Positions 1,480 through 41,372 of a stretch of DNA of 64,000 bases are shown here, piece after piece. The notes under the pieces were generated by a model. The model had not been told where the DNA came from and did no database searches. It saw nothing but the letters and a program-made list of their open reading frames with translations. Made by a program: the position numbers and the translations under genes. The stretch is taken from positions 28,733 through 92,732 of the forward strand of contig CALJKN010000192.1 in NCBI GenBank assembly GCA_937973585.1, written 5' to 3'. Numbering within the stretch: position 1 is the stretch's first letter; each line of letters starts with the position of its first letter. The stretch is from an uncultured Helicobacteraceae bacterium. Lineage in GTDB: Bacteria; Campylobacterota; Campylobacteria; Campylobacterales; UBA6016.

Positions 1480-1947
1480 TCAGGACTCCTTTTGTGGGCT
1501 AGAATATTTCATTAACACTTTTCCGGTATCGGTTCTCATCATAATTCTTCTTCCCGATGAACCGCCGGTATCTTCCGCCGTTACCCGTATTTTATACTCC
1601 GATAAAATCTCTTTGGCGGTTAGTATATTTCTTTTGCCAATCATCATATCTTCGCTTGATGAAAAATTGATACTAGCTCCACCGAATATCTTTGCCTCCA
1701 TATTTGAGGTGCTGCACCCTATATCGGTCATCGACTGAATCATTCTAGGAATCGATATGTTTCCAAATTTTGGACTTTGAAGGCCATTTCCATTCCAAAG
1801 CGGCAAAAGATAGTGGTTCATCCCACCTATCTGTCTGGCTTTGTCAAAAAGGCAAACTGCTACGCATGAACCGAGTACGGTAGAGATCTCGGTTGGATTA
1901 AAACCTATATGAATCTGGCCGACGTGAATAAATACTTTTTCGTACAT
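1480..1947 (-). CDS. cheD: Chemoreceptor glutamine deamidase CheD
   Basis: 155 aa. Contains LGSCVAVCLFD and GGMNHYLLP, the CheD catalytic Cys/His context. Confidence 0.85.
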   Translation of the reverse strand: MYEKVFIHVGQIHIGFNPTEISTVLGSCVAVCLFDKARQIGGMNHYLLPLWNGNGLQSPKFGNISIPRMIQSMTDIGCSTSNMEAKIFGGASINFSSSEDMMIGKRNILTAKEILSEYKIRVTAEDTGGSSGRRIMMRTDTGKVLMKYSSPQKES

Positions 1948-1965: not shown

Positions 1966-2853
1966 TTACATTTCGAATGCGTCGTCAAAATCTTCAAACA
2001 GAATATCGTTTCCGCCGCCGCTACCGCACTCCTGACACTCGTTTGCCAATGGAATCTCAACCTTAAATACGGTTTTACCGTGCTCACTATCGTAATCTAT
2101 CTCTCCGTCAAGCGCCTCAACCTCGCCTTTTACGACGCTAAGACCCAAGCCGAGTCCTGTTTTTGCCCTATTGACACCTTGATTAAACTGACTAAATCTA
2201 TTATAAACGAGCATTTTGTTATCAACACTAATCCCCTCCCCCTCATCTTCTACTTCGATATAGAGTTTTGTATCATCGTTTTTTAGTCTAACGGTAATAG
2301 TTTTATCCGGATATGTGTATTCGCACGCATTGGATAGGAGATTTGAGATAATAAGATATAGTTTTGAGGCATCGGAAATTATTTTTTCACTACAGTCGTT
2401 TTGCAGGACAATATTGATATTTTTGTCTTTTATGAGGTAGATAAAAGCCGATTTTGCATCACTTAGGATACTCTCAAAATTGATTTTTGTATAGTAGCTC
2501 TCGGTTTTTCCGGCTTCTATCTCGCTAGCGGCTATTATATTTTTAATCTGGAAATCAAGCCTCAAAATCTCCATATGGAGCATCTCGACAAGCTCGGTTG
2601 TTTTTTCCGGCTTTTTACCCGTTAGGACTATTGAGCAAATATTTAAAACCGATGATATCGGGTTATTGAATTCGTTTTTTATAAGGGATAAAAACTCGCT
2701 TTTTACCGAGTCTACCTCAATCAGTCTCTGGTTTAGGTCTATAAGTTTTTTATTTAAAAATTCAGATTCTTCGATTGAGGCGTTTTTCTCTTTAAATCTT
2801 CTCTCAATCTCTTGCAGTATCGATTCGTCGCTTAAATTGTGCAAATCTTGCAT
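1966..2853 (-). CDS. Histidine-kinase-like protein (DHp + GHKL ATPase) lacking the phospho-acceptor His; soluble, no sensor domain
   Basis: 295 aa. ATP-binding boxes are intact: N (LIISNLLSNACEYT), G1 (DEGEGIS), F (YNRFSQF), G2 (GLGLGLS). The H-box reads SEFLSLIKNEFNNPISSV, with Asn60 (AAC at 2676-2674) where SHE is expected. Acidic C-terminal tail NDILFEDFDDAFEM. Confidence 0.8.
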   Translation of the reverse strand: MQDLHNLSDESILQEIERRFKEKNASIEESEFLNKKLIDLNQRLIEVDSVKSEFLSLIKNEFNNPISSVLNICSIVLTGKKPEKTTELVEMLHMEILRLDFQIKNIIAASEIEAGKTESYYTKINFESILSDAKSAFIYLIKDKNINIVLQNDCSEKIISDASKLYLIISNLLSNACEYTYPDKTITVRLKNDDTKLYIEVEDEGEGISVDNKMLVYNRFSQFNQGVNRAKTGLGLGLSVVKGEVEALDGEIDYDSEHGKTVFKVEIPLANECQECGSGGGNDILFEDFDDAFEM

Positions 2854-2874
2854 ATTGACCCTTTGTTTGGTTTT

Positions 2875-3696
2875 TTATAGTTTTGTATAAATTGACGACT
2901 TGAGAAGTCCGAATTCGTGCTTATTTTCGGTTATGGCCTCCGAATCACCGATAACCAACAACCCACCTTTGTCAAGTAGTTTTGCGTACCTGCTGATTAA
3001 CGCTTTTTTTGTCGGATTATCAAAATAAATCATAACGTTTCGGCAAAAAATAATGTCAAATTTGTTTTTAAAAATCGTAAAATCACCCGTCACGAGATTA
3101 AAACTTCTAAAAACAATATCGGACTTTAGCTCGTCTTTGACGGCGTACTGTAACCCATTGGCTGTTCTATGTTTGTCAAAATATTTTTGCAGCTGTGTAG
3201 ATGAAATACCGGATATATCCTTTTCGGCATACTCTCCCCTGACCCCTTTTGACATGGCTTTATGTGAAATATCGGTAGCAAGTATCTTGATATCTCTTTG
3301 TGAGAAATCTTTTAGGTTATCCCTCAAAAACATAGAAATAGTATACGGCTCTTCGCCGCTAGAACAAGCTGCCGACCAGATCCTGATTTTTTGTTTTTTA
3401 CCGAATATCTTCTCCATATTCTCTTTTAAATACTGCCACTGCTGCGGGGAGCGAAAAAAAGAGGTGACATTTGTGGAGATTGCGTTTATAAAATCTATAA
3501 ACTCATCCTCTCCCTCTTTAGAATTTAAAAAACGGTAATACTCACTAAAAGTCTTAAAGCCGAAATGTTTTAATCTTTTGTGTAGTCTACCCTTTACCAT
3601 TACCGATTTTTGTTCGGATAGGGCAATCCCTACCCTCTTGTAAACAAATGAACGGATTTTTTCAAACTCTTCGTTTGTTATCTCTATGTCAAGCAT
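2875..3696 (-). CDS. cheR: Chemotaxis protein methyltransferase CheR
   Basis: 273 aa. N-terminal helical CheR domain plus SAM-MTase motifs (IWSAACSSGEEPYT, IFCRNVMIYF). Confidence 0.9.
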   Translation of the reverse strand: MLDIEITNEEFEKIRSFVYKRVGIALSEQKSVMVKGRLHKRLKHFGFKTFSEYYRFLNSKEGEDEFIDFINAISTNVTSFFRSPQQWQYLKENMEKIFGKKQKIRIWSAACSSGEEPYTISMFLRDNLKDFSQRDIKILATDISHKAMSKGVRGEYAEKDISGISSTQLQKYFDKHRTANGLQYAVKDELKSDIVFRSFNLVTGDFTIFKNKFDIIFCRNVMIYFDNPTKKALISRYAKLLDKGGLLVIGDSEAITENKHEFGLLKSSIYTKL

Positions 3697-3699
3697 TAA

Positions 3700-5832
3700 T
3701 TATTTGTCCGACTCGGAGCATAGCCCGTCAATATTCAAAATCAAGGCTATATCGCCGTTGCCCAAAATCGCCCCGCCGGATATCTCACGTATTTTTGCCA
3801 TAGAGCGTCCGAGGCTTTTGATAACAACCTGTTGGCGACCAAGTAAGGCATCTACCAAAATAGCAAATCTACCACGCTCAGAATCTACGCATACAAGTGT
3901 GCTCTCCCAAATTTGTGGCCTGTGCGGAGTTTTTACGTCAAGTGCCTCATCTAATCTAATAACCGGAATCTGCTCCCCTCTTAGGTTTACAAACTCACCA
4001 CGCCCTTTTAACATATGGACTATCTCTTTTTGCGGGACAAACGACTCTACTACGCTAAGCGTTGGGATGATGAACGTCTCAGCACCGCTTTTAACCAACA
4101 TTCCATCAATAATTGCAAGCGTGAGCGGCAATATGATAGAAAAAGTACTACCGTAGCCTATTTCGCTGTCTATCTCAACTTTGCCCCGTAGCTTTTCTAT
4201 AGATGTCTTAACAACGTCAAGGCCGACACCTCTGCCGGATATATCACTAATTGTTTTTGCAGTGGAAAAACCGGGTTGCATGATAAGCGAGAATATCTGC
4301 TGGTCGGTCAGGGTGTCGTTTGGATCGACAAGACCTCTTTCTATCCCTTTTTTTAAGACCGCTTCCTTGTCGATACCCCTACCGTCGTCGGAGATTGCGA
4401 TAATAATATTTCCGCTTTTATGAAACGCTCTCAGGGATATCGTCCCATCTCTCTCTTTCCCTTTTGCTTCCCTCTCATCATTGCTATCCTCTAGCCCGTG
4501 GTCGATAGCATTTCGTATCATATGTACGATAGGATCAGATAGGGAGTCGATCATTGTTTTATCAATCTCTGTCTCTTCACCCTGAATAACCAATTTGATA
4601 TCTTTGCCGGTTTTTTTGGCCGTATCTCTGGCCACCCGTTTCATCTTCTCAAATGTATCCCTGATAGCAACCATCCTAAGAGACATAACTCTGTCTTGAA
4701 TCGTCTTCGTGATTTTAGAGAGCGTCTCTATCGTTTTGTTTATATTTGAGTCACCAAGATCTTTTATCTTTTCATTCTGAGCGATAAAGTTCTGGGCGAT
4801 AACAAGCTCCCCTACGGTGTCGAAAAGCTCATCCAGTTTTGCCGTGTCAATTTTGATATACGACTTTTGGGCTGACTCCTCTTTTTTTACAACTGAAGAT
4901 GTCTGTTGTTTGCTCTCAGGTAGTTTACTTGCCTGCTCCTGCTCTTCAATCTTTTTTGGTGCATCGCCTTGTGGTTTTATCTCCTCTTTTACTGCGGCTA
5001 TTTCTGCCGCTTTTGCCTCTATTGCCCTTATTGCATATTCGTGCTCGAATAAAAATTCAAAAATCTCAGATATCTCAGCCTCCGGCTTCTCAGAAGCGAG
5101 AAGAACAGATACTAATGGAAGATATGAGTCCTCGGCTGCAAATTCCGAGAGTTTCGGGACGTGCTCCATGTCCCAATATGTATGGAGTATATCGCCGACA
5201 TCGGATAGCATCTTCAAAAATACGATATGGTCATAGCCTCTAAAATATATATCTTTGTCAAATATAAAATCTACCGCATATAGAGTTTTGCCGTCTATAT
5301 GGTATTTTTGCCCATCAGCCGATATCTTTTGCTTTATCCTCTGGGCACACTCTAGTCCGCTCGAATCTTCGCCAATTTGAACTTCGTTGGCGCTAAATTC
5401 AGATGCTAAATCTTTTAGCGGCGGTTCGTCTTTTGTAGCCTTGGCACTTCCGCCGTCAAGTAAAGCGATAATGGCAGACAGACACTCGTCATAGTTTTCC
5501 GGTAGTCCGTCCGATTCGGCAACCTCGTAATTTAACGTCTCTTTTATTACGTCTACCGATTTTAGCAACGTATCAACGGCTGATTCCGGAACTACGGCAC
5601 CGGGGCTTCTATAGTTATCTAGCAAATCCTCAAAATGATGGACAAAGCCGCCGAGTCTGGTAAACCCAAACGCATTGGCATTCCCTTTTAGGGTATGAAC
5701 ACCACGAAAAAGCTCATTGATTAGCTCTTTATTTCCTGTATCAGACTCAAAATCCACAATATCGGCATCGAGTTTTTCGATAATCTCGGAGGCCTCTTCG
5801 ATGAATATATTTTTTAACTGCTCTTTATTCAT
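3700..5832 (-). CDS. cheA: Chemotaxis histidine kinase CheA
   Basis: HPt (FRGVHTLKGNANAFGF), dimerisation region, HATPase boxes (HMIRNAIDHG, DDGRGID, GRGVGLDVV) and a C-terminal CheW-like domain. I prefer ATG 5832 (MNKEQLKNIF) to the track start 5871, which would overlap the upstream gene by 47 nt. Confidence 0.9.
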   Translation of the reverse strand: MNKEQLKNIFIEEASEIIEKLDADIVDFESDTGNKELINELFRGVHTLKGNANAFGFTRLGGFVHHFEDLLDNYRSPGAVVPESAVDTLLKSVDVIKETLNYEVAESDGLPENYDECLSAIIALLDGGSAKATKDEPPLKDLASEFSANEVQIGEDSSGLECAQRIKQKISADGQKYHIDGKTLYAVDFIFDKDIYFRGYDHIVFLKMLSDVGDILHTYWDMEHVPKLSEFAAEDSYLPLVSVLLASEKPEAEISEIFEFLFEHEYAIRAIEAKAAEIAAVKEEIKPQGDAPKKIEEQEQASKLPESKQQTSSVVKKEESAQKSYIKIDTAKLDELFDTVGELVIAQNFIAQNEKIKDLGDSNINKTIETLSKITKTIQDRVMSLRMVAIRDTFEKMKRVARDTAKKTGKDIKLVIQGEETEIDKTMIDSLSDPIVHMIRNAIDHGLEDSNDEREAKGKERDGTISLRAFHKSGNIIIAISDDGRGIDKEAVLKKGIERGLVDPNDTLTDQQIFSLIMQPGFSTAKTISDISGRGVGLDVVKTSIEKLRGKVEIDSEIGYGSTFSIILPLTLAIIDGMLVKSGAETFIIPTLSVVESFVPQKEIVHMLKGRGEFVNLRGEQIPVIRLDEALDVKTPHRPQIWESTLVCVDSERGRFAILVDALLGRQQVVIKSLGRSMAKIREISGGAILGNGDIALILNIDGLCSESDK

Positions 5833-6094
5833 GGCATATCCATTCAGCTTTTCCGAGTTTTTTAAAATCAAATCCTCCGCCGTCTATAAACGGTATCTTG
5901 ATGTTGGATTTTGTTTTTTTGAGACTCACCAAAAAAGCGATAAGGGCTGACGACAGGGGCATCTCATCGTCGCCGCCCTCAAAACCGACCTCTTCTATAT
6001 ATTCAAGACGAGGCAGAACAAACTTTTTTAGCTCATCGATATCTGCCTGCGTCATATCTAACGATATGTTTAGTCTATCACCGTCTATTTGCAT
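5825..6094 (-). CDS. Small STAS-like (anti-sigma-antagonist fold) protein
   Basis: 89 aa. The beta-alpha pattern and the segment DDEMPLSSALIAFLVSLKK align by eye with the SpoIIAA-type fMDSSGLGvil helix start. Its stop overlaps the cheA ATG by 8 nt (ATGAATAA), and its start lies 2 nt after the MCP-1 stop. Confidence 0.5.
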   Translation of the reverse strand: MQIDGDRLNISLDMTQADIDELKKFVLPRLEYIEEVGFEGGDDEMPLSSALIAFLVSLKKTKSNIKIPFIDGGGFDFKKLGKAEWICHE

Positions 6095-6096
6095 AT

Positions 6097-6963
6097 TTAA
6101 AACTCTTTCAAATCGCTTTCATCTAACGGAAATATCTCATCCGCATCTTTTCTGCCTTGTGCAGGTTTTGCTTTTGCCGTTACGACAGGTCTATGTGATA
6201 CCTGTCTTATCTCTTTTTTTATAGGAGAAGATTGTTTGCTTACAGACTTCGGTGCTGAGTGTGGGTGATGTGAATCAACATCAATCCCGACTATTTTAGC
6301 AAGAGCCGCTACGGCTTCCAAGGCCGCTACGGCTTGTGCATTAAGCTCTTCCGATGCTGCTGCTGCCTCTTCCGAGTTTGCCGCTACCTGTTGGGTTACC
6401 TGATCTATCTGACCCATTGCGCTGTTTAGCTGTGTTAAACCCTCGGTTTGTTCTCTGCTTGACATTGCAACTTCGCCGATTAGGTCTGATACTTTTTTTG
6501 CTTTGTCTTCGATGTCTCTAAACGAGTTACTGGCTAGATTGGCTATCTCTGAACCTTTTTTGATTTGACCTACAGCTTCTTCGATGACTACGGCCGTCTC
6601 TTTTGCACTATTAGCCGCTCTTTGTGCAAGGTTTCTAACCTCATCGGCAACAACCGCAAATCCTAGTCCGTGCTCCCCTGCCCTTGCTGCCTCCACTGCT
6701 GCGTTTAGCGCTAGTAGGTTTACTTGAAATGCTATCTGGTCTATTGTTTTTACTATGTTTGCTATTTTTGCAGCCGATTCGGTAACCTCTTGCATAGAAC
6801 CTACAAGCTCTTCACCTTTGCTTAGACCCTCTTTTGCCGCTTTGTTTGCCTCTTTTGCCAATATATCTGCCTGTCTGGCGTTTTCAGTATTAGATGTAAC
6901 GCTAGCCGTAGTCTCTTCGAGGGTAGCACTAACCTCTTCAACGCTACTTGCCTGCTCTGATGC
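6097..6963 (-). repeat. Copy A of an 867-bp direct repeat (3' part of MCP-1)
   Basis: Block-by-block comparison by eye with 7788-8654 (offset 1691) found no mismatch. Identity starts exactly at the stop codon and ends at 6963. Confidence 0.85.
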
Positions 6964-7755
6964 ACCTTGCGCCAAAGAGGTAGAACTAGATGCTACCTGA
7001 TCGGCGGCAGAGGTGATTTGTAATGCACCTTCGTTTATAGTGGTGACCGCTTCTGTGATTGAGCGTGTTACGGAGCGGATGATGAGGGCGGCCAAGATAA
7101 TAGATATGACTATAACTACCGAAGCCGATACGCCTACAGAGTTTCTGGATGAAGATGCTTCCCCATAGGCCGTATCCACAACCTCTTTTATTTTTGACTC
7201 TCTTCTGTCAAGTAGTTTATTGAGCGCTGAACCCATTGCATCTGACACCGGTATCATATGCGATACCTCTGCTTTATATGTCACGAAAAGCTCTTTTTGT
7301 ATATTTGGATCTTTATTCTCTGATAATTTTTTTATCACAGAATCTATTTGAGCATATTCGCTTCTCCAAGCTTTATACTTTTCGGTAAAATCTGCAAAAT
7401 CTTTTTTGCCGTTCTCTGTTGCAATTAAACTTTCATATGTTTTCATATGCTTTTCGAAAATAGACCACGATTTTTCTCTCTGATCTAAAACTTTAGCAAA
7501 TGAGGCTTGTGCATTATAATTTAACTCATGCTCATAGACGGAAAGTGTTTGCGCCCTGATAACAAGTCTCTCCCTGTCCATTTTTAGTGCGGCGGTACTC
7601 TGAACAACTTCTTTTTTACCAATACCTTCAACATCTTCTATCCACCCGTTAGCGCCAGAAAATCCTTTGTAGGACAAAAAAGCTATCCCCGCCAACATAA
7701 AAACGGTAAGTAACATTAGCTTGGTTCTTAAAACCATATTATCTAGCCAACCCAT
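6097..7755 (-). CDS. Methyl-accepting chemotaxis protein (MCP-1)
   Basis: 552 aa. TM1, a roughly 170-aa periplasmic helical sensor, TM2, and a signalling domain with the hairpin motif [23 protein letters not shown]. Long tail ending [14 protein letters not shown]. Confidence 0.9.
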
Positions 7756-7787: not shown

Positions 7788-8654
7788 TTAAAACTCTTTC
7801 AAATCGCTTTCATCTAACGGAAATATCTCATCCGCATCTTTTCTGCCTTGTGCAGGTTTTGCTTTTGCCGTTACGACAGGTCTATGTGATACCTGTCTTA
7901 TCTCTTTTTTTATAGGAGAAGATTGTTTGCTTACAGACTTCGGTGCTGAGTGTGGGTGATGTGAATCAACATCAATCCCGACTATTTTAGCAAGAGCCGC
8001 TACGGCTTCCAAGGCCGCTACGGCTTGTGCATTAAGCTCTTCCGATGCTGCTGCTGCCTCTTCCGAGTTTGCCGCTACCTGTTGGGTTACCTGATCTATC
8101 TGACCCATTGCGCTGTTTAGCTGTGTTAAACCCTCGGTTTGTTCTCTGCTTGACATTGCAACTTCGCCGATTAGGTCTGATACTTTTTTTGCTTTGTCTT
8201 CGATGTCTCTAAACGAGTTACTGGCTAGATTGGCTATCTCTGAACCTTTTTTGATTTGACCTACAGCTTCTTCGATGACTACGGCCGTCTCTTTTGCACT
8301 ATTAGCCGCTCTTTGTGCAAGGTTTCTAACCTCATCGGCAACAACCGCAAATCCTAGTCCGTGCTCCCCTGCCCTTGCTGCCTCCACTGCTGCGTTTAGC
8401 GCTAGTAGGTTTACTTGAAATGCTATCTGGTCTATTGTTTTTACTATGTTTGCTATTTTTGCAGCCGATTCGGTAACCTCTTGCATAGAACCTACAAGCT
8501 CTTCACCTTTGCTTAGACCCTCTTTTGCCGCTTTGTTTGCCTCTTTTGCCAATATATCTGCCTGTCTGGCGTTTTCAGTATTAGATGTAACGCTAGCCGT
8601 AGTCTCTTCGAGGGTAGCACTAACCTCTTCAACGCTACTTGCCTGCTCTGATGC
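7788..8654 (-). repeat. Copy B of the 867-bp direct repeat (3' part of MCP-2)
   Basis: See copy A. The first mismatch is 8655 (c) versus 6964 (a). Confidence 0.85.
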
Positions 8655-9449
8655 CCCTTGTGCCAAAGAGGTAGAGCTAGATGCAACTTGGTCTGCGGCA
8701 GATGTTATTTGCAAAGCACCCTCATTGATTGTGGTGACTGCTTCTGTTATTGAGCGGGTTACGGAGCGGATTATTAGGATGGAGAGCGAAACACCTATAA
8801 AAAGAGCCGTCAACACTACGACAATAGAGATATTTCTATACTCGCCGGAATCGCTTATTGCTTGCGAAACCATTGTCTCTGCACCTTTTTTGCTAATATC
8901 TAACATAACGGTAATCTCTTTAAAGCCGGCCTCTCTTACGGGGCGCATTTTTTCTATCATCGGCGTTATGCGTAAAAATAACTCCGATACTACCTTTTGG
9001 TCGTTTTCTTTAGAGATAGGCTCCAAGGCAGATGCAACAAGCTCGTCATTTAGTTTTTTCCATTCGGCGTATATTTTTTTAAATTCTTGCCAACTTTTCT
9101 CCTCCTCAGGGGTTCTCGGCAAAGGTTCGTATGTTTTCCACCCTTTTTCGATAGTCTCAAATCCGGCTTTGAATTTTGCTATAGAGTCAAGCATTTTACT
9201 TTTGTAGTCTGAATCACCGGCAAGACCTCGCACCCTATTGGCTTGAACGGCTACCTGATACACACCGTCTTTGATTGTATAAAGACCGTCAAGAGAGGGG
9301 AGATTATTTTTACCTATCTCCGTAGTCTGCATCGCCCATTTATCGACTCCGCTATAGACTATCGCACCTAACACCAAAAAACCAATAACCATCACTAACG
9401 TCAAAAGCACCAACTTGCTTTTCAAAACCATATTATCAAGCCAACCCAC
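7788..9449 (-). CDS. Methyl-accepting chemotaxis protein (MCP-2), GTG start
   Basis: 553 aa. Same topology as MCP-1. The C-terminal ~328 aa are identical to MCP-1 while the periplasmic sensor is unrelated in sequence. GGGGAA RBS lies upstream of GTG 9449. Confidence 0.9.
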
Positions 9450-9460
9450 CGTTTCCCCTT

Positions 9461-9952
9461 TTAGTTTTTACTCATCATATCAAGAGCCGACAACTCTTCG
9501 GCTTCAAATAGTTTTTCAAGATCCAAGATCATAACAACCGTCTCGCCAACTCTAGCCATATTTTTTATAAAGTCGATGTTGATGTTTGTCCCAAACCTCG
9601 GCGGTTCAGATATGTTCGCATCATCGATAGAGAGTACCTCTTCGACCTTATCGACTATAAAGCCGATACTAATTTTGTCTATTTCTACAATGATTATCGC
9701 AGTTTGCTCGTCATACTCAATATGCGGCATATCAAACCTAAGTCTTGTATCGATAACCGGAATAATCGAACCTCTTAGGTTTATAACGCCCACCACGTAT
9801 GCGGGTGTTTTAGGTACGGCAGTTGTTTTCATAATGGCTATTATCTCTTTAACCTGAGAGATATCGATCCCGTATTCCTCTTCCCCTAAAAAAAATGTCA
9901 AAAATTTATTTTTGGAGGCTTTTATGTGTGATTTTTCGCTCTCTTTCATCAT
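9461..9952 (-). CDS. cheW: Chemotaxis coupling protein CheW
   Basis: 163 aa. CheW pattern [18 protein letters not shown]...[13 protein letters not shown]. Its ATG overlaps the cheY stop (TAATG). Confidence 0.9.
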
Positions 9953-10338
9953 TAAATCCCTAAAACCATCTTGATGGATTTTACAAGTTTCTCATCGCTA
10001 AAAGGTTTAACCATCCATCCGGTCACTCCAATATCCTTGCCCATTTGCTTCATATCCGCCGAACTCTCGGTGGTTAAAATGAGTATCGGCTTTTGCTTGA
10101 ATCTGGCATCGTTTTTAATCTCTCTAGCAAGATCCAACCCGTTCATCTGGGGCATATTTATATCCGATATCAGCAGATCGAAGCTCTCGGCTCCGCTTTT
10201 TAAATTGGACAACAACTCCTCCGGATTTAAATACGTCTTAAACTCAACAACTCCAGAAGCTGCAAGCTCCTCCACAGCCATCTGCGCCGTTGCGAGAATG
10301 GTTTTTGAGTCGTCTACGAGTATTACTTTTTTAGCCAC
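9952..10338 (-). CDS. cheY: CheY-like single-domain response regulator
   Basis: Receiver residues are present: DD (ILVDDS), phospho-Asp (LISDINMP), T (LTTES), K (VKPF). I place the start at GTG 10338, preceded by GGAGG at 5-nt spacing. The longer track ORF (to 10476) would overlap the upstream transporter gene. Confidence 0.85.
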   Translation of the reverse strand: MAKKVILVDDSKTILATAQMAVEELAASGVVEFKTYLNPEELLSNLKSGAESFDLLISDINMPQMNGLDLAREIKNDARFKQKPILILTTESSADMKQMGKDIGVTGWMVKPFSDEKLVKSIKMVLGI

Positions 10339-10391
10339 TAGAACCTCCGTGTATCTTTTAAGTCGGTAGATTTTACTATATTTTTCAGTTT

Positions 10392-29699: not shown

Positions 29700-29796
29700 G
29701 GCGAGAAGGCGAAGGAGTCGAACCTTCCTCCAGACAGCCACCTGTCCGGACAGTGGGTTTGAAGCCCATGACGCCCCCGGGGTCGTATGCCTTCCG
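29700..29796 (-). tRNA. selC: tRNA-Sec (anticodon UCA)
   Basis: Minus-strand read: GGAAGGC-AU-ACGACC-CCGG-GGGCGU...UGGG-CUUCAAA-CCCA...UCCGGACAG-GUGG-CUGUCUGGA...GAAGG-UUCGACU-CCUUC-GCCUUCU. This gives a 6-bp D-stem with a 4-nt loop, the same anticodon loop CUUCAAA as E. coli selC, a 9-bp extra arm and T-loop UUCGACU. The exact ends are uncertain by 1-3 nt. Confidence 0.85.
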
Positions 29797-39875: not shown

Positions 39876-41141
39876 CTACAAAACCTGATACGCTATATCA
39901 CTTCTATATTGCATCCCGCCAAAGCTAACCGTAGACATCACCTCGTAGGCATTTTTTTGAGCCGTTTTGATATCGCCTCCAAAACCCACAGCCGCCAATA
40001 TCCTACCACCGTTTGCGTAAAGGCCGTCACTTCTGGCTTCAACACCGGCAAAAGAGATATGTCCTAAATTAGACATTTCGGATAATTTTTGTTCATCTAT
40101 CTCGATCTTTACCGGTGCGGTATTTGAATACGGATATTTTTCGCTTGCAGCTATAACGGCTACGCTAAAGCTGTTTTTGATGGAAAATTGTAGATTCTCT
40201 ACCTCTCCACCCGCACAAGCATCAAACAGCTCCAAAACATCACTCTCGATAAGGGTCATCAAAACCTCACACTCCGGATCGCCAAACCTGACGTTAAACT
40301 CCAATGTATACGGCTCATTATTCACAACCATTATCCCCGCAAAAAGGACACCCTCAAACGGACACCCCTCCGAGTGCATCGCTTTTACGGTAGGGGCTAT
40401 GATATTTTTTTCGATTTTTTCCATAATTTCAGGGGTACATAGCGGAGTCGGGGCATAAGCTCCCATCCCTCCGGTATTTGGCCCCTCATTGCCGTCCTTT
40501 AGCCTTTTATGGTCTTGCGCCGCAGGGAGAATTTTGTAGTTTACACCGTCCGTCAATGCAAAGACGGACAACTCAAATCCATCCAAAAACTCTTCTATGA
40601 CGACTTTTTTACCGGCATCTCCAAAGCTGTCGCCGTTTAGCATATCTTTTGCCGCTTCTTTGGCTTCATCTTTGGTTTCGCAGATTATAACCCCTTTGCC
40701 GGCACAAAGTCCGTCGGCCTTTACGACAATATAGCCATCCATGGCATCGATAAAATCGAATGCCTCGGCTTCACTGGAGGTCTCTATATATTTTGCCGTA
40801 GGGATATCGTATTTAGCCAAAATATTTTTCATAAAAGCTTTTGAGGACTCCAGCCTTGCCGCTTTTTTGGATGGGCCGAATATTTTTAGGTTATGTTTTT
40901 TGAATACATCTACTATGCCGGACGACAAAGGTGCTTCTGGTCCAACAATAGTCAAATCTATACTATTTTTCTTTGCAAAAGAGGCAAGCCCCTCATAATC
41001 GGTGATGTCGATATTCTCACCGACTCTACTTGTTGCACCGTTACCGGGTGCGAAATATAGCTTATTTAATTTTTTACTTTTTTTGACGGCTAATCCTATA
41101 GAAAACTCTCTAGCACCGTTACCGACTATTAAAACATTCAT
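39876..41141 (-). CDS. purD: Phosphoribosylamine-glycine ligase
   Basis: 421 aa. MNVLIVGNGAREFSI..., ATP-grasp core, GGMGAYAP. AAGGA RBS. Confidence 0.95.
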   Translation of the reverse strand: MNVLIVGNGAREFSIGLAVKKSKKLNKLYFAPGNGATSRVGENIDITDYEGLASFAKKNSIDLTIVGPEAPLSSGIVDVFKKHNLKIFGPSKKAARLESSKAFMKNILAKYDIPTAKYIETSSEAEAFDFIDAMDGYIVVKADGLCAGKGVIICETKDEAKEAAKDMLNGDSFGDAGKKVVIEEFLDGFELSVFALTDGVNYKILPAAQDHKRLKDGNEGPNTGGMGAYAPTPLCTPEIMEKIEKNIIAPTVKAMHSEGCPFEGVLFAGIMVVNNEPYTLEFNVRFGDPECEVLMTLIESDVLELFDACAGGEVENLQFSIKNSFSVAVIAASEKYPYSNTAPVKIEIDEQKLSEMSNLGHISFAGVEARSDGLYANGGRILAAVGFGGDIKTAQKNAYEVMSTVSFGGMQYRSDIAYQVL

Positions 41142-41169: not shown

Positions 41170-41372
41170 AAAAAACCCGGACGGGCGTTCTCATTAGAGA
41201 CTTTGGTCCTCCAAAGTCAAGTATTTGTGCTCTAGCCCGACCTTTAGGCGGCAACCTCTCGGAAATCAGATCCTCAGGCAAGGCCACCGAACACACCGGC
41301 GGGTCATTATGAGCAGACTGTTTATAGTTCGTTAGGACCCAAAATTTTACGGGTAGCGCACCGTCCAGGAAA
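41170..41372 (-). ncRNA. ssrS: Rod-shaped structured RNA upstream of purD; candidate epsilonproteobacterial 6S RNA (purD RNA motif)
   Basis: Six nested helices found by eye (plus-strand coordinates): 41176-87/41357-69, 41201-10/41334-43, 41215-18/41316-19, 41228-32/41311-15, 41236-39/41300-03, 41247-52/41283-88. A symmetric ~13x13-nt internal loop is present. The closing helix is followed by U6 (41175-41170), 29 nt before the purD ATG. Confidence 0.55.

Follow-up and report, generated by a model that had tools for sequence, protein, structure and literature searches.

A Conserved Family of Histidine Kinase-Like Proteins With Asparagine at the Phospho-Acceptor Position Is Encoded Next to CheD

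Introduction

The question of what a histidine kinase can do once its phospho-acceptor histidine is gone is raised by a gene in a 64,000-nt stretch of DNA from an uncultured Helicobacteraceae bacterium (NCBI GenBank assembly GCA_937973585.1, contig CALJKN010000192.1, positions 28,733 to 92,732), hereafter called the window. The gene (1966–2853, minus strand) encodes a protein of 295 amino acids (aa) plus stop with a HisKA and a HATPase_c domain, referred to here as the pseudo-kinase, and lies in a chemosensory operon between the genes for the methyltransferase CheR and for CheD, a member of the deamidase family. A preliminary description had presented it as a histidine kinase paralog with Asn in place of the phospho-acceptor His, a term which undersells a family that extends over several phyla. 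The pseudo-kinase is a conserved and apparently undescribed signalling component rather than the product of a mutation. No description of a CheD-linked His-less kinase was found in the literature, and a survey of chemosensory clusters in Campylobacterota marks non-che cluster genes only as “.” (PMC9321776).

Many chemosensory pathways contain CheD without CheC or a known CheY~P phosphatase, and both the role of CheD and the termination of the signal are questions in these pathways. A His-less kinase that is accompanied by CheD provides a concrete and testable candidate for both. The features which bear on its function, and which go beyond the preliminary description, are a phosphatase determinant consisting of Glu and Asn at the first and fourth positions after the His site (H+1 and H+4), a strict pairing with CheD, and a conserved acidic tail.

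Asparagine at the Phospho-Acceptor Position

The open reading frame (ORF) begins with an ATG preceded by an AAGGG Shine-Dalgarno-like sequence, 22 nt past the stop codon of cheR, and cheD starts 18 nt past its own stop codon. Its extent agrees with the ORF list, with Pfam and with the length of 120 homologs of ~295 aa. Residues 51–72 of the protein read KSEFLSLIKNEFNNPISSVLNI, and codon 60 is AAC (2676–2674). Pfam HisKA (PF00512) matches residues 51–115 over positions 2–66 of the hidden Markov model (HMM) with 28.2 bits (gathering threshold 26.9), and phmmer alignments with the structures of GacS (7Z8N), SrrB (6PAJ) and a WalK-type kinase (5C93) set “kNEfnnP” opposite “sHEirtP” or “sHElrtP”. 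Because Pfam and the three Protein Data Bank (PDB) alignments agree on one position, a misplaced H-box with a real His elsewhere was rejected, and Asn60 corresponds to the phospho-acceptor position, as the preliminary description had claimed. The alignments further delimit residues 54–65, FLSLIKNEFNNP (2659–2694, minus strand), as a degenerate H-box with the pattern N60-E61-x-x-N64-P65.

Two genome relatives (65–70% identity) likewise have KNEFNNP, and proteins 100% identical to that of the window are encoded in two independent ENA metagenome assemblies (L016 and L017 in our numbering of loci). An alignment of orthologs, which had been named as a check, bears out the substitution: Asn60 is present in all 120 homologs, down to 44% identity, and the stretch K-S-x-F-L-S-L-I-K-N-E-F-N-N-P is nearly wholly invariant among them. 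When 1.84 billion representative proteins were searched with a profile and no motif constraint, the top 150 hits divided into 105 short proteins, of which 99 are full-length (the family representatives, sharing 28–58% identity with the query), and 46 long canonical or hybrid kinases. The His site is Asn in 97 of the 99 family representatives (one Ser, one Thr and no His) as opposed to His in 45 of the 46 canonical kinases (one gap). Glu at H+1 (97/99; canonical kinases Glu 43/46 and Asp 2/46) and Pro at H+5 (99/99; canonical kinases 45/46) are common to both groups, while H+3 is Asn in 79/99 family representatives compared with Arg in 42/46 canonical kinases, and H+4 is Asn in 97/99 compared with Thr in 43/46. 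N60, E61, N64 and P65 are invariant in the alignment of the Campylobacterota subfamily (A1) as well as in that of the wide family (A2). Members named in source databases belong to Campylobacterota, Magnetococcales, Nitrospirota and Calditrichota, and hence to at least four bacterial phyla; Sulfurospirillum sp. T05 and Sulfurimonas sp. are among the organisms given there.

The caveat that a single base separates AAC from the His codon CAC, so that a sequencing error, a recent strain-specific mutation or a decaying pseudogene might be at work, is refuted by the identical proteins from two assemblies, by homologs and representatives from several phyla of which none has His, and by an intact ORF of conserved length with many invariant positions. 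The comparative data indicate that Asn60 is fixed and under selection. A second His to which attention had been drawn, His93 in EMLHMEI, occurs in only 54 of 121 homologs and was rejected as an alternative phospho-acceptor; His5 and His258 are not conserved, and besides columns 93 and 212 no column in the alignment of the 121 homologs contains at least 30% His. The expectation that the protein does not autophosphorylate at the usual site is well supported by the near-uniform Asn and the lack of a conserved alternative His, and the pseudo-kinase is predicted not to transfer phosphate via residue 60.

The protein combines the HisKA dimerization and histidine phosphotransfer (DHp) domain and the HATPase_c domain of a sensor histidine kinase but lacks the phospho-acceptor His, and judging from its sequence it belongs to the bacterial pseudo-histidine kinases, of which DivL, RocA and PsmA are examples. 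No orthology was found to a described pseudo-histidine kinase (DivL) or to any NCBIfam model; in NCBIfam the protein matches generic kinase models only, all far under their cut-offs, and no named family. Public records list family members under the name “HAMP domain-containing (sensor) histidine kinase”. Since no HAMP match was obtained in the two members scanned (those of the window and of locus L058) and the family lacks the phospho-acceptor His, this name looks like a systematic mis-annotation.

Catalytic Domain and Fold

Pfam HATPase_c (PF02518) covers residues 161–270 (2044–2373, minus strand) with 79 bits, and this catalytic (CA) domain retains most of the boxes which had been regarded as intact: N171 and N175 of the N-box, D203-x-G-x-G207 with Gly205 of the G1-box, F220 of the F-box and G233-x-G-x-G237 of the G2-box. 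The part of that claim which does not hold is the basic residue of the N-box (NAxK/R in aligned kinases), which is replaced by Glu178. At this position the family representatives have Glu in 65/99 and Lys in 23/99, compared with Lys in 46/46 canonical kinases. The Mg-binding Asn175 (family 99/99; canonical kinases 46/46), the G2 glycines 233, 235 and 237 (99/99 each; 45, 46 and 46 of 46) and Gly205 of the G1-box (98/99; 46/46) are conserved. Asp203, which the window protein has, is found in 82/99 and replaced by Asn in 16/99, compared with Asp in 46/46 canonical kinases. These counts show that two nucleotide-contacting positions are relaxed or reversed in charge, in a pocket that is otherwise largely under purifying selection; this selection is strong on most pocket residues, as it is on N-E-x-x-N-P at the surface of the DHp domain. 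Taken as a whole, the residue pattern suggests that the fold is kept, that nucleotide binding is probably kept as well, and that catalysis has been lost.

The AlphaFold2 model, for which 51 family members were used and whose mean predicted local distance difference test (pLDDT) score is 79.5, consists of one continuous helix (residues 9–78), a second helix (82–113), a GHKL domain with a low-confidence ATP lid (221–233), and a disordered tail (273–295, pLDDT <50). Residues 1–45 (2719–2853, minus strand) had been described as a coiled-coil-like segment. They are indeed helical in the model, but because helix 9–78 is unbroken they are better regarded as an extension of DHp helix 1; the DHp hairpin itself spans residues 46–115 (2509–2718, minus strand) according to the Pfam match, the model and Foldseek. 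Within the extension, D9, R19, E22, K23, E31, L37 and N41 are invariant in the Campylobacterota subfamily, and R19, L37 and N41 are conserved in the wide family too. The N-terminal helix was also considered as a mimic of a methylation or deamidation site, and this was rejected, as its “ASIEESE” misfits the consensus and is not conserved outside Campylobacterota. The statement that the protein has neither a transmembrane segment nor a sensor domain stands: the maximum 19-residue Kyte-Doolittle hydropathy is 0.94, and a Pfam scan gave no domain above threshold beyond HisKA and HATPase_c.

The best structural matches in Foldseek are HK853 in its complexes with RR468, and DivL, and kinase regions of RetS are among the matches. 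With HK853, EnvZ and CrdS the pseudo-kinase shares the domain order, the fold, a Thr or Asn at H+4, the N, G1, F and G2 boxes, and the dimeric DHp domain. Unlike these kinases, it has no His, no Arg at H+3 and no Ser at H-1, its N-box Lys is mostly replaced by Glu in the family, and it is devoid of a sensor, a transmembrane region and a paired DNA-binding response regulator.

Linkage to CheD

Gene context was studied in 86 focal loci, of which 75 have at least 450 nt of DNA downstream of the pseudo-kinase gene. The pattern I[RK]NE[IF]NNP served to find the 80 metagenome loci that were fetched, which are therefore valid for gene context only, not for Asn conservation; neighbouring ORFs were labelled by phmmer against the Che proteins of the window, so that generic receiver (REC) proteins are labelled CheY or CheB. 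CheD is encoded immediately downstream in 75/75 loci. This was recorded by script within 350 nt in 71 of them, and in the other four (L035, L060, L067 and L084) after correction of the ORF start, since an upstream Met had been miscalled as the start; the CheDs of these four loci cluster with the linked ones. Clustered at 90%, 70% and 50% identity, the 75 loci fall into 60, 37 and 12 groups, respectively. The gap between the two genes has a median of 9 nt, and in 30/72 loci the genes are at most 4 nt apart or overlap. The gene upstream varies more: in 36/63 loci it encodes CheR, and in 16/63 its product corresponds to none of the nine reference proteins. The conserved unit is the pseudo-kinase together with CheD.

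In the window, the operon on the minus strand runs CheY-CheW-MCP-MCP-89-aa protein-CheA-CheR-pseudo-kinase-CheD-CheB, where MCP stands for methyl-accepting chemotaxis protein. This order recurs in Campylobacterota loci (L001, L002, L011, L012 and L013) as cheY-cheW-mcp-small-cheA-cheR-X-cheD-cheB, in which X is the pseudo-kinase gene. A distant member on a 5.6-Mb contig (L014) has the order cheY-cheA-cheW-mcp-cheR-X-cheD-cheB, and a Magnetococcales member likewise has cheD as the next gene downstream. The ancestral F7 gene order is cheY-cheA-cheW-mcp-cheR-cheD-cheB with a gene for an anti-sigma antagonist (PMC7184735); L014, L074 and L094 resemble such F7-like clusters with the pseudo-kinase gene inserted before cheD, a likeness drawn from gene order only. 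The linkage to CheD extends beyond chemosensory clusters. Stand-alone pairs with no che genes within 9 kb occur in L058, L063 and L077 (the pair lies at ~9001–10380), flanked by PAS, EamA-transporter, HDOD and GGDEF genes, and the pseudo-kinase-CheD module may thus also serve signalling other than chemotaxis, perhaps related to cyclic di-GMP.

The linked CheDs form a subfamily of their own. In loci with two cheD genes (L062, L087, L088, L089, L091 and L093), the unlinked copy groups with other unlinked copies, apart from the linked subfamily, and in four of these loci (L088, L089, L093 and L062) one CheD occupies the cheR-cheD-cheB position and the second, of the linked subfamily, directly follows the pseudo-kinase. 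The catalytic GSC Cys motif is kept in 60/60 linked CheDs. In an alignment of the window CheD (1480–1947, minus strand; Pfam CheD) with Thermotoga maritima CheD (2F9Z) that extends across the Cys and His motifs, both GSC and H-x-x-LP are retained.

It is tentatively concluded, at somewhat less than even confidence, that this conserved soluble family of kinase-dead HisKA proteins acts as a dedicated partner of a specific CheD paralog, both inside and sometimes outside chemosensory clusters.

The Acidic C-Terminal Tail

Residues 273–295 (1969–2037, minus strand; predicted to be disordered) consist of a Gly/Ser linker followed by an acidic tail, NDILFEDFDDAFEM, with seven acidic and no basic residues. 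The tail conserved across the family has the form [GS]-N-[ED]-hydrophobic-hydrophobic-F-[DE], after which comes an acidic stretch with F, L or M at its end. A regular expression for it matches 64/103 pseudo-kinase-type ORFs as opposed to 4/593 unlabelled ORFs, and the part of the tail that is conserved best, N-E-F-x-F-D-D, precedes the last five residues. Similar tails are found on the receptors of the same clusters. When acidic-Phe tails are defined by at least five acidic residues among the last 16 and a Phe at the end, they occur in 29/42 cluster MCPs, 37/103 pseudo-kinase-type ORFs and 9/593 other ORFs. The MCPs end in DLKEF in the window and in EYEKF or EFEKF in L014, L080, L088 and L094, and relatives of the pseudo-kinase end in GMVEF, EMEEF or DDMLF.

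A docking function common to the tails of the pseudo-kinase and the MCPs is plausible from their sequences. Known receptor tethers (NWETF/GWEEF, and those of the F7 receptors Aer2/McpB with CheR2/CheB2) likewise consist of a flexible linker and a short acidic-hydrophobic C-terminal peptide, but the tail described here sits on a protein that is not a receptor. CheR of the window aligns without gaps with Salmonella CheR (1BC5), which binds the pentapeptide, across the beta-subdomain, where Pseudomonas aeruginosa CheR1 (5XLY) has a 3-residue gap; this insertion reportedly marks pentapeptide-dependent CheRs, a finding of 2014 that is ascribed to García-Fontana et al. The F7 receptor tether motif is x-[HFYW]-x2-[HFYW] (PMC7184735), which EYEKF and EFEKF fit.

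Tails of this kind were also observed on other proteins. Some Campylobacterota clusters are accompanied by proteins in which a REC or PAS domain is followed by an unannotated domain of ~300 aa ending in ..LQIE[SA]IF.. and then by an acidic tail (..DDLEFF, ..DDFELF or ..DDFEMF) like those of the MCPs and pseudo-kinases. Examples are located in L042 (12556–13845 and 13859–15346), L026 (1498–2787) and L043 (10353–11879), and such proteins also occur in L038, L047, L053 and L054; their ~300-aa output domain has no sequence match in Pfam, NCBIfam or the PDB. In L014, a 254-aa protein without Pfam hit (2309–3073) heads the distant cluster, with the STAS-like gene and cheY downstream of it, and its end, ..NELFFPEKAEAVEDIDDIELF, is of the same kind as that of the L014 pseudo-kinase (..GNEFFFNADESF).

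Proposed Function and Alternatives

In HisKA kinases, Thr or Asn at H+4 is required for phosphatase activity and the His is largely dispensable, as illustrated by CrdA~P, whose half-life is 53.5 min by itself, 0.7 min in the presence of wild-type CrdS, 2.6 min in that of H371A and 47.6 min in that of N375A (Willett and Kirby, PMC3510030). The acid at H+1 is needed in the kinase reaction, and the phosphatases CheX (ExxN) and CheZ (DxxxQ) operate in a manner like that of the H+1/H+4 pair (PMC3510030). The combination that characterizes phosphatase-competent HisKA domains, Thr or Asn at H+4 within E/D-x-x-T/N, is present in the pseudo-kinase as E61 and N64. In the substitution pattern, the determinants of phosphatase activity are kept and those of kinase activity lost, with H+3 changed from Arg to Asn and the N-box from Lys to Glu in 65 of the 99 representatives. 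As Glu61 is invariant in a protein unable to be a kinase, it would now have another role, for which a CheX-like acid-amide pair is the obvious candidate.

The reading that we prefer, with a confidence that falls a little short of even, is that the pseudo-kinase is a kinase-dead phosphatase or sensor of phosphorylated CheY or CheB, which partners CheD as CheC does. The DHp dimer would still dock a phosphorylated receiver, namely that of the cluster CheY, that of CheB, or both. In the window, CheY is canonical, with all of its DD, D, T and K residues, and CheB carries a receiver domain (Pfam REC). Without the His and the H+3 Arg, phosphate could not be transferred, and Glu61 and Asn64, possibly with Asn60, would position a water molecule and hydrolyse the acyl-phosphate of the receiver. 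The role of the CA domain would be conformational or regulatory and dependent on nucleotide, not catalytic. Binding of CheD might couple receiver phosphorylation to the action of CheD on the receptors, or CheD might stimulate the phosphatase, following the feedback logic of CheC-CheD, and the tail would tether the pseudo-kinase to a docking site for receptor tails, probably on CheR or CheB.

The pseudo-kinase would then be the natural counterpart of two known phosphatase sites, those of NtrB H139N and of CheX/CheC. The H-box of NtrB (NRII) is HEIKNP and that of its H139N mutant NEIKNP, a near match to the NEINNP or NEFNNP of the family. Both proteins combine a HisKA DHp and a CA domain and have Asn in place of His, with the H+1 Glu and H+4 Asn kept. 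NtrB H139N, however, is a laboratory mutant of a bifunctional, PII-regulated kinase with a PAS domain. The pseudo-kinase family, by contrast, occurs in nature, has no sensor, carries an additional N-terminal helix and an acidic tail, and is constantly accompanied by CheD. The mutant dephosphorylates its receiver and cannot phosphorylate it, a behaviour which the pseudo-kinase is predicted to share; NtrB H139N has been used as a phosphatase-only enzyme (bioRxiv 10.1101/122606).

The CheC-CheD pair of Bacillus subtilis and T. maritima (2F9Z) resembles the present one in that CheD is encoded beside a protein which handles, or in our case is proposed to handle, CheY~P. The ExxN of CheC/CheX and E61-x-x-N64 of the pseudo-kinase each set an acid and an amide on a helix. 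The CheC/CheX/FliY fold differs from the DHp/GHKL fold and the two share no sequence homology; no CheC or CheX Pfam match was obtained in the pseudo-kinase, which lacks the D/S-x3-E-x2-N-x22-P site of the CheC type and has only E-x-x-N and the adjacency to CheD in common with it, the interaction with CheD being deduced here from gene linkage. In four loci, the surrounding ~9 kb carry no annotation of a CheC, CheX or CheZ family, and this, together with the motif and the CheD pairing, suggests a functional analogue of CheC-CheD. If the preferred reading is correct, a two-component kinase has been turned into a phosphatase-only or sensor-only protein by an NtrB-type change from His to Asn, in nature and on a wide scale, which would be useful for work on the mechanism of HisKA phosphatases and as a part for synthetic biology.

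Several points weigh against this reading. Kinases differ in whether their phosphatase reaction needs the His, and PleC H610A loses both activities (cited in PMC3510030). Asn at the G1 Asp position in 16/99 members and Glu in the N-box may mean that nucleotide binding is weak or dispensable, which would leave the retention of the CA domain unexplained. Gene adjacency is no proof of a physical complex between the pseudo-kinase and CheD, no fusion of the two was found among the 150 representatives or the 86 loci, and no CheY adjoins the stand-alone pairs. Finally, neither the DAFEM at the end of the window pseudo-kinase nor the DLKEF of the window MCPs fits the strict x-[HFYW]-x2-[HFYW] motif, so that the docking partner of the tail is a guess.

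A broader and more doubtful proposal is that the pseudo-kinase and its dedicated CheD constitute a feedback module of two genes which is portable and represents the counterpart to CheC-CheD that has been missing from CheC-less (F7-like) pathways. It would comprise an obligate phosphatase or sensor of phospho-CheY/CheB that arose through the changes His to Asn, Arg to Asn and Lys to Glu, a receptor-like C-terminal tether to the array, and regulation of the pseudo-kinase by CheD or vice versa. A more radical version has CheD deamidate an Asn/Gln-rich surface of the DHp domain to switch the activity of the pseudo-kinase.

After the phosphatase or sensor favoured above, the next most likely role, although an unlikely one, is that of a non-catalytic phospho-receiver sensor or scaffold similar to DivL. 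Such a protein would bind CheY~P or CheB~P without hydrolysis and, through sequestration or release of CheD, pass the signal allosterically to CheD, CheA or the receptors. In B. subtilis, the key feedback of CheC-CheD lies in CheY~P-dependent binding and not in catalysis, a precedent with which the strict CheD linkage agrees, since it fits binding or sequestration. DivL of Caulobacter is a top structural match with a HisKA/HATPase fold that has no phospho-acceptor His, is thought to read DivK~P, and is the established example of a kinase without the His that has been turned into a sensor of a phospho-receiver (PMC4211667). It nevertheless has Tyr and not Asn at the His site, is membrane-anchored, carries PAS domains, acts in the cell cycle by regulating CckA, is only 21% identical to the pseudo-kinase, and has neither a CheD link nor a tail. 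Moreover, the invariant Glu at H+1 and Asn at H+4 are tied to catalysis, and binding alone has no obvious need of them.

An activity as a GHKL protein kinase on a target other than His, which the preliminary description had put forward in the form of a Ser/Thr kinase, is improbable. The substrate could be a Ser of a STAS-like protein, as in partner switching, or CheD or the receptors. The nucleotide pocket is mostly conserved, HATPase_c_2 gives a weak match (24.9 bits for the window protein against a gathering threshold of 27.4, and 29.4 bits for the L058 member), and the Campylobacterota clusters encode a STAS-like protein of 86–89 aa with an “SS” helix cap. Ancestral F7 clusters, too, encode anti-sigma antagonists and a Ser phosphatase, with no described kinase (PMC7184735). 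Partner switching was nevertheless judged weak, as the linkage is to CheD in all 75 loci and not to the STAS-like gene, which was detected in 24 related loci and is absent from the stand-alone pseudo-kinase-CheD pairs; the Ser of the “SS” motif is moreover not conserved in the L014 homolog. Kinases of the RsbW/SpoIIAB type have no DHp domain, and here the DHp motif is the best-conserved part, so that a full DHp domain with N-E-x-x-N-P would be superfluous in such a kinase. No Ser or Thr near the site is special to the family, HATPase_c_2 remains below threshold in the window protein, and the exchanges of the N-box Lys for Glu and of the G1 Asp for Asn (16/99) speak against efficient phosphotransfer.

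Little credence is likewise given to the idea of a receptor mimic or decoy, whose helical bundle and receptor-like tail would titrate CheD and, via the tail, CheR or CheB; in a variant, the pseudo-kinase might itself be deamidated by CheD. CheC binds CheD by mimicking its receptor substrate (structure 2F9Z), the linked CheDs retain their catalytic residues, the tail is like those of the cluster MCPs, and in most che-cluster loci the gene lies between cheR and cheD. A decoy would leave the invariant N-E-x-x-N-P and the residues of the ATP pocket unexplained, however. Compared with the bundle of a receptor, that of the DHp domain is much shorter, and the family has no common consensus of Glu/Gln pairs for methylation or deamidation.

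The least probable of these roles, and a very unlikely one, is that of a protein which inhibits a genuine kinase by forming a heterodimer with it, as in RetS-GacS; a heterodimer partner had also been suggested before. RetS kinase regions appear among the structural matches and a PAS-HisKA-HATPase kinase, together with REC proteins, adjoins the cluster downstream of cheB in some Campylobacterota loci (L038, L042, L047, L053 and L054), but such a kinase is present in a minority of loci, the loci most closely related to the window (L001, L002 and L011) do not have it, and the gene shows no consistent linkage to any bona fide kinase.

Other Genes of the Cluster and the Window

The remaining genes of the operon are all on the minus strand. 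CheB, which combines REC and methylesterase domains (Pfam), is encoded at 437–1474 and CheR, directly upstream of the pseudo-kinase, at 2875–3696 (Pfam CheR_N and CheR). CheA (3700–5871; start codon uncertain) was assigned from the ORF list and from orthologous genes with Hpt, H-kinase_dim, HATPase_c and CheW domains. CheW (9461–9952) and CheY (9952–~10338; start codon uncertain) were assigned from the ORF list, their translations and orthologous annotation.

The small STAS-like gene (5825–6094; 89 aa in the window) lies between an MCP or CheW gene and cheA and overlaps the annotated start of cheA. Its product has no Pfam or NCBIfam match. The resemblance to STAS proteins was noted by eye from a beta-alpha-beta pattern followed by ..PxSSALIAFLVSLKK, in which the conserved “SS” stands at the start of a helix. 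An analogous protein of 98 aa in L014 (3095–3391) gives weak matches to MlaB/anti-sigma antagonists (E 0.0035–0.01).

The two MCP genes of the window are arranged in tandem (6097–7755 and 7788–9449; ORF list), and both encode an acidic tail. They share a block of 867 nt with 100% identical DNA (6097–6963 and 7788–8654) which comprises the C-terminal signalling domain and the tail, and their N-terminal sensor regions differ. The identical block points to a recent duplication or gene conversion.

Further along the window, the Rfam purD RNA motif was located at 41175–41305 (minus strand; 48.2 bits, gathering threshold 41), just downstream in coordinates of an ORF at 39876–41141 (minus strand). 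A selenocysteine tRNA (anticodon TCA) was found by both ARAGORN and Rfam at 29703–29795 on the minus strand.

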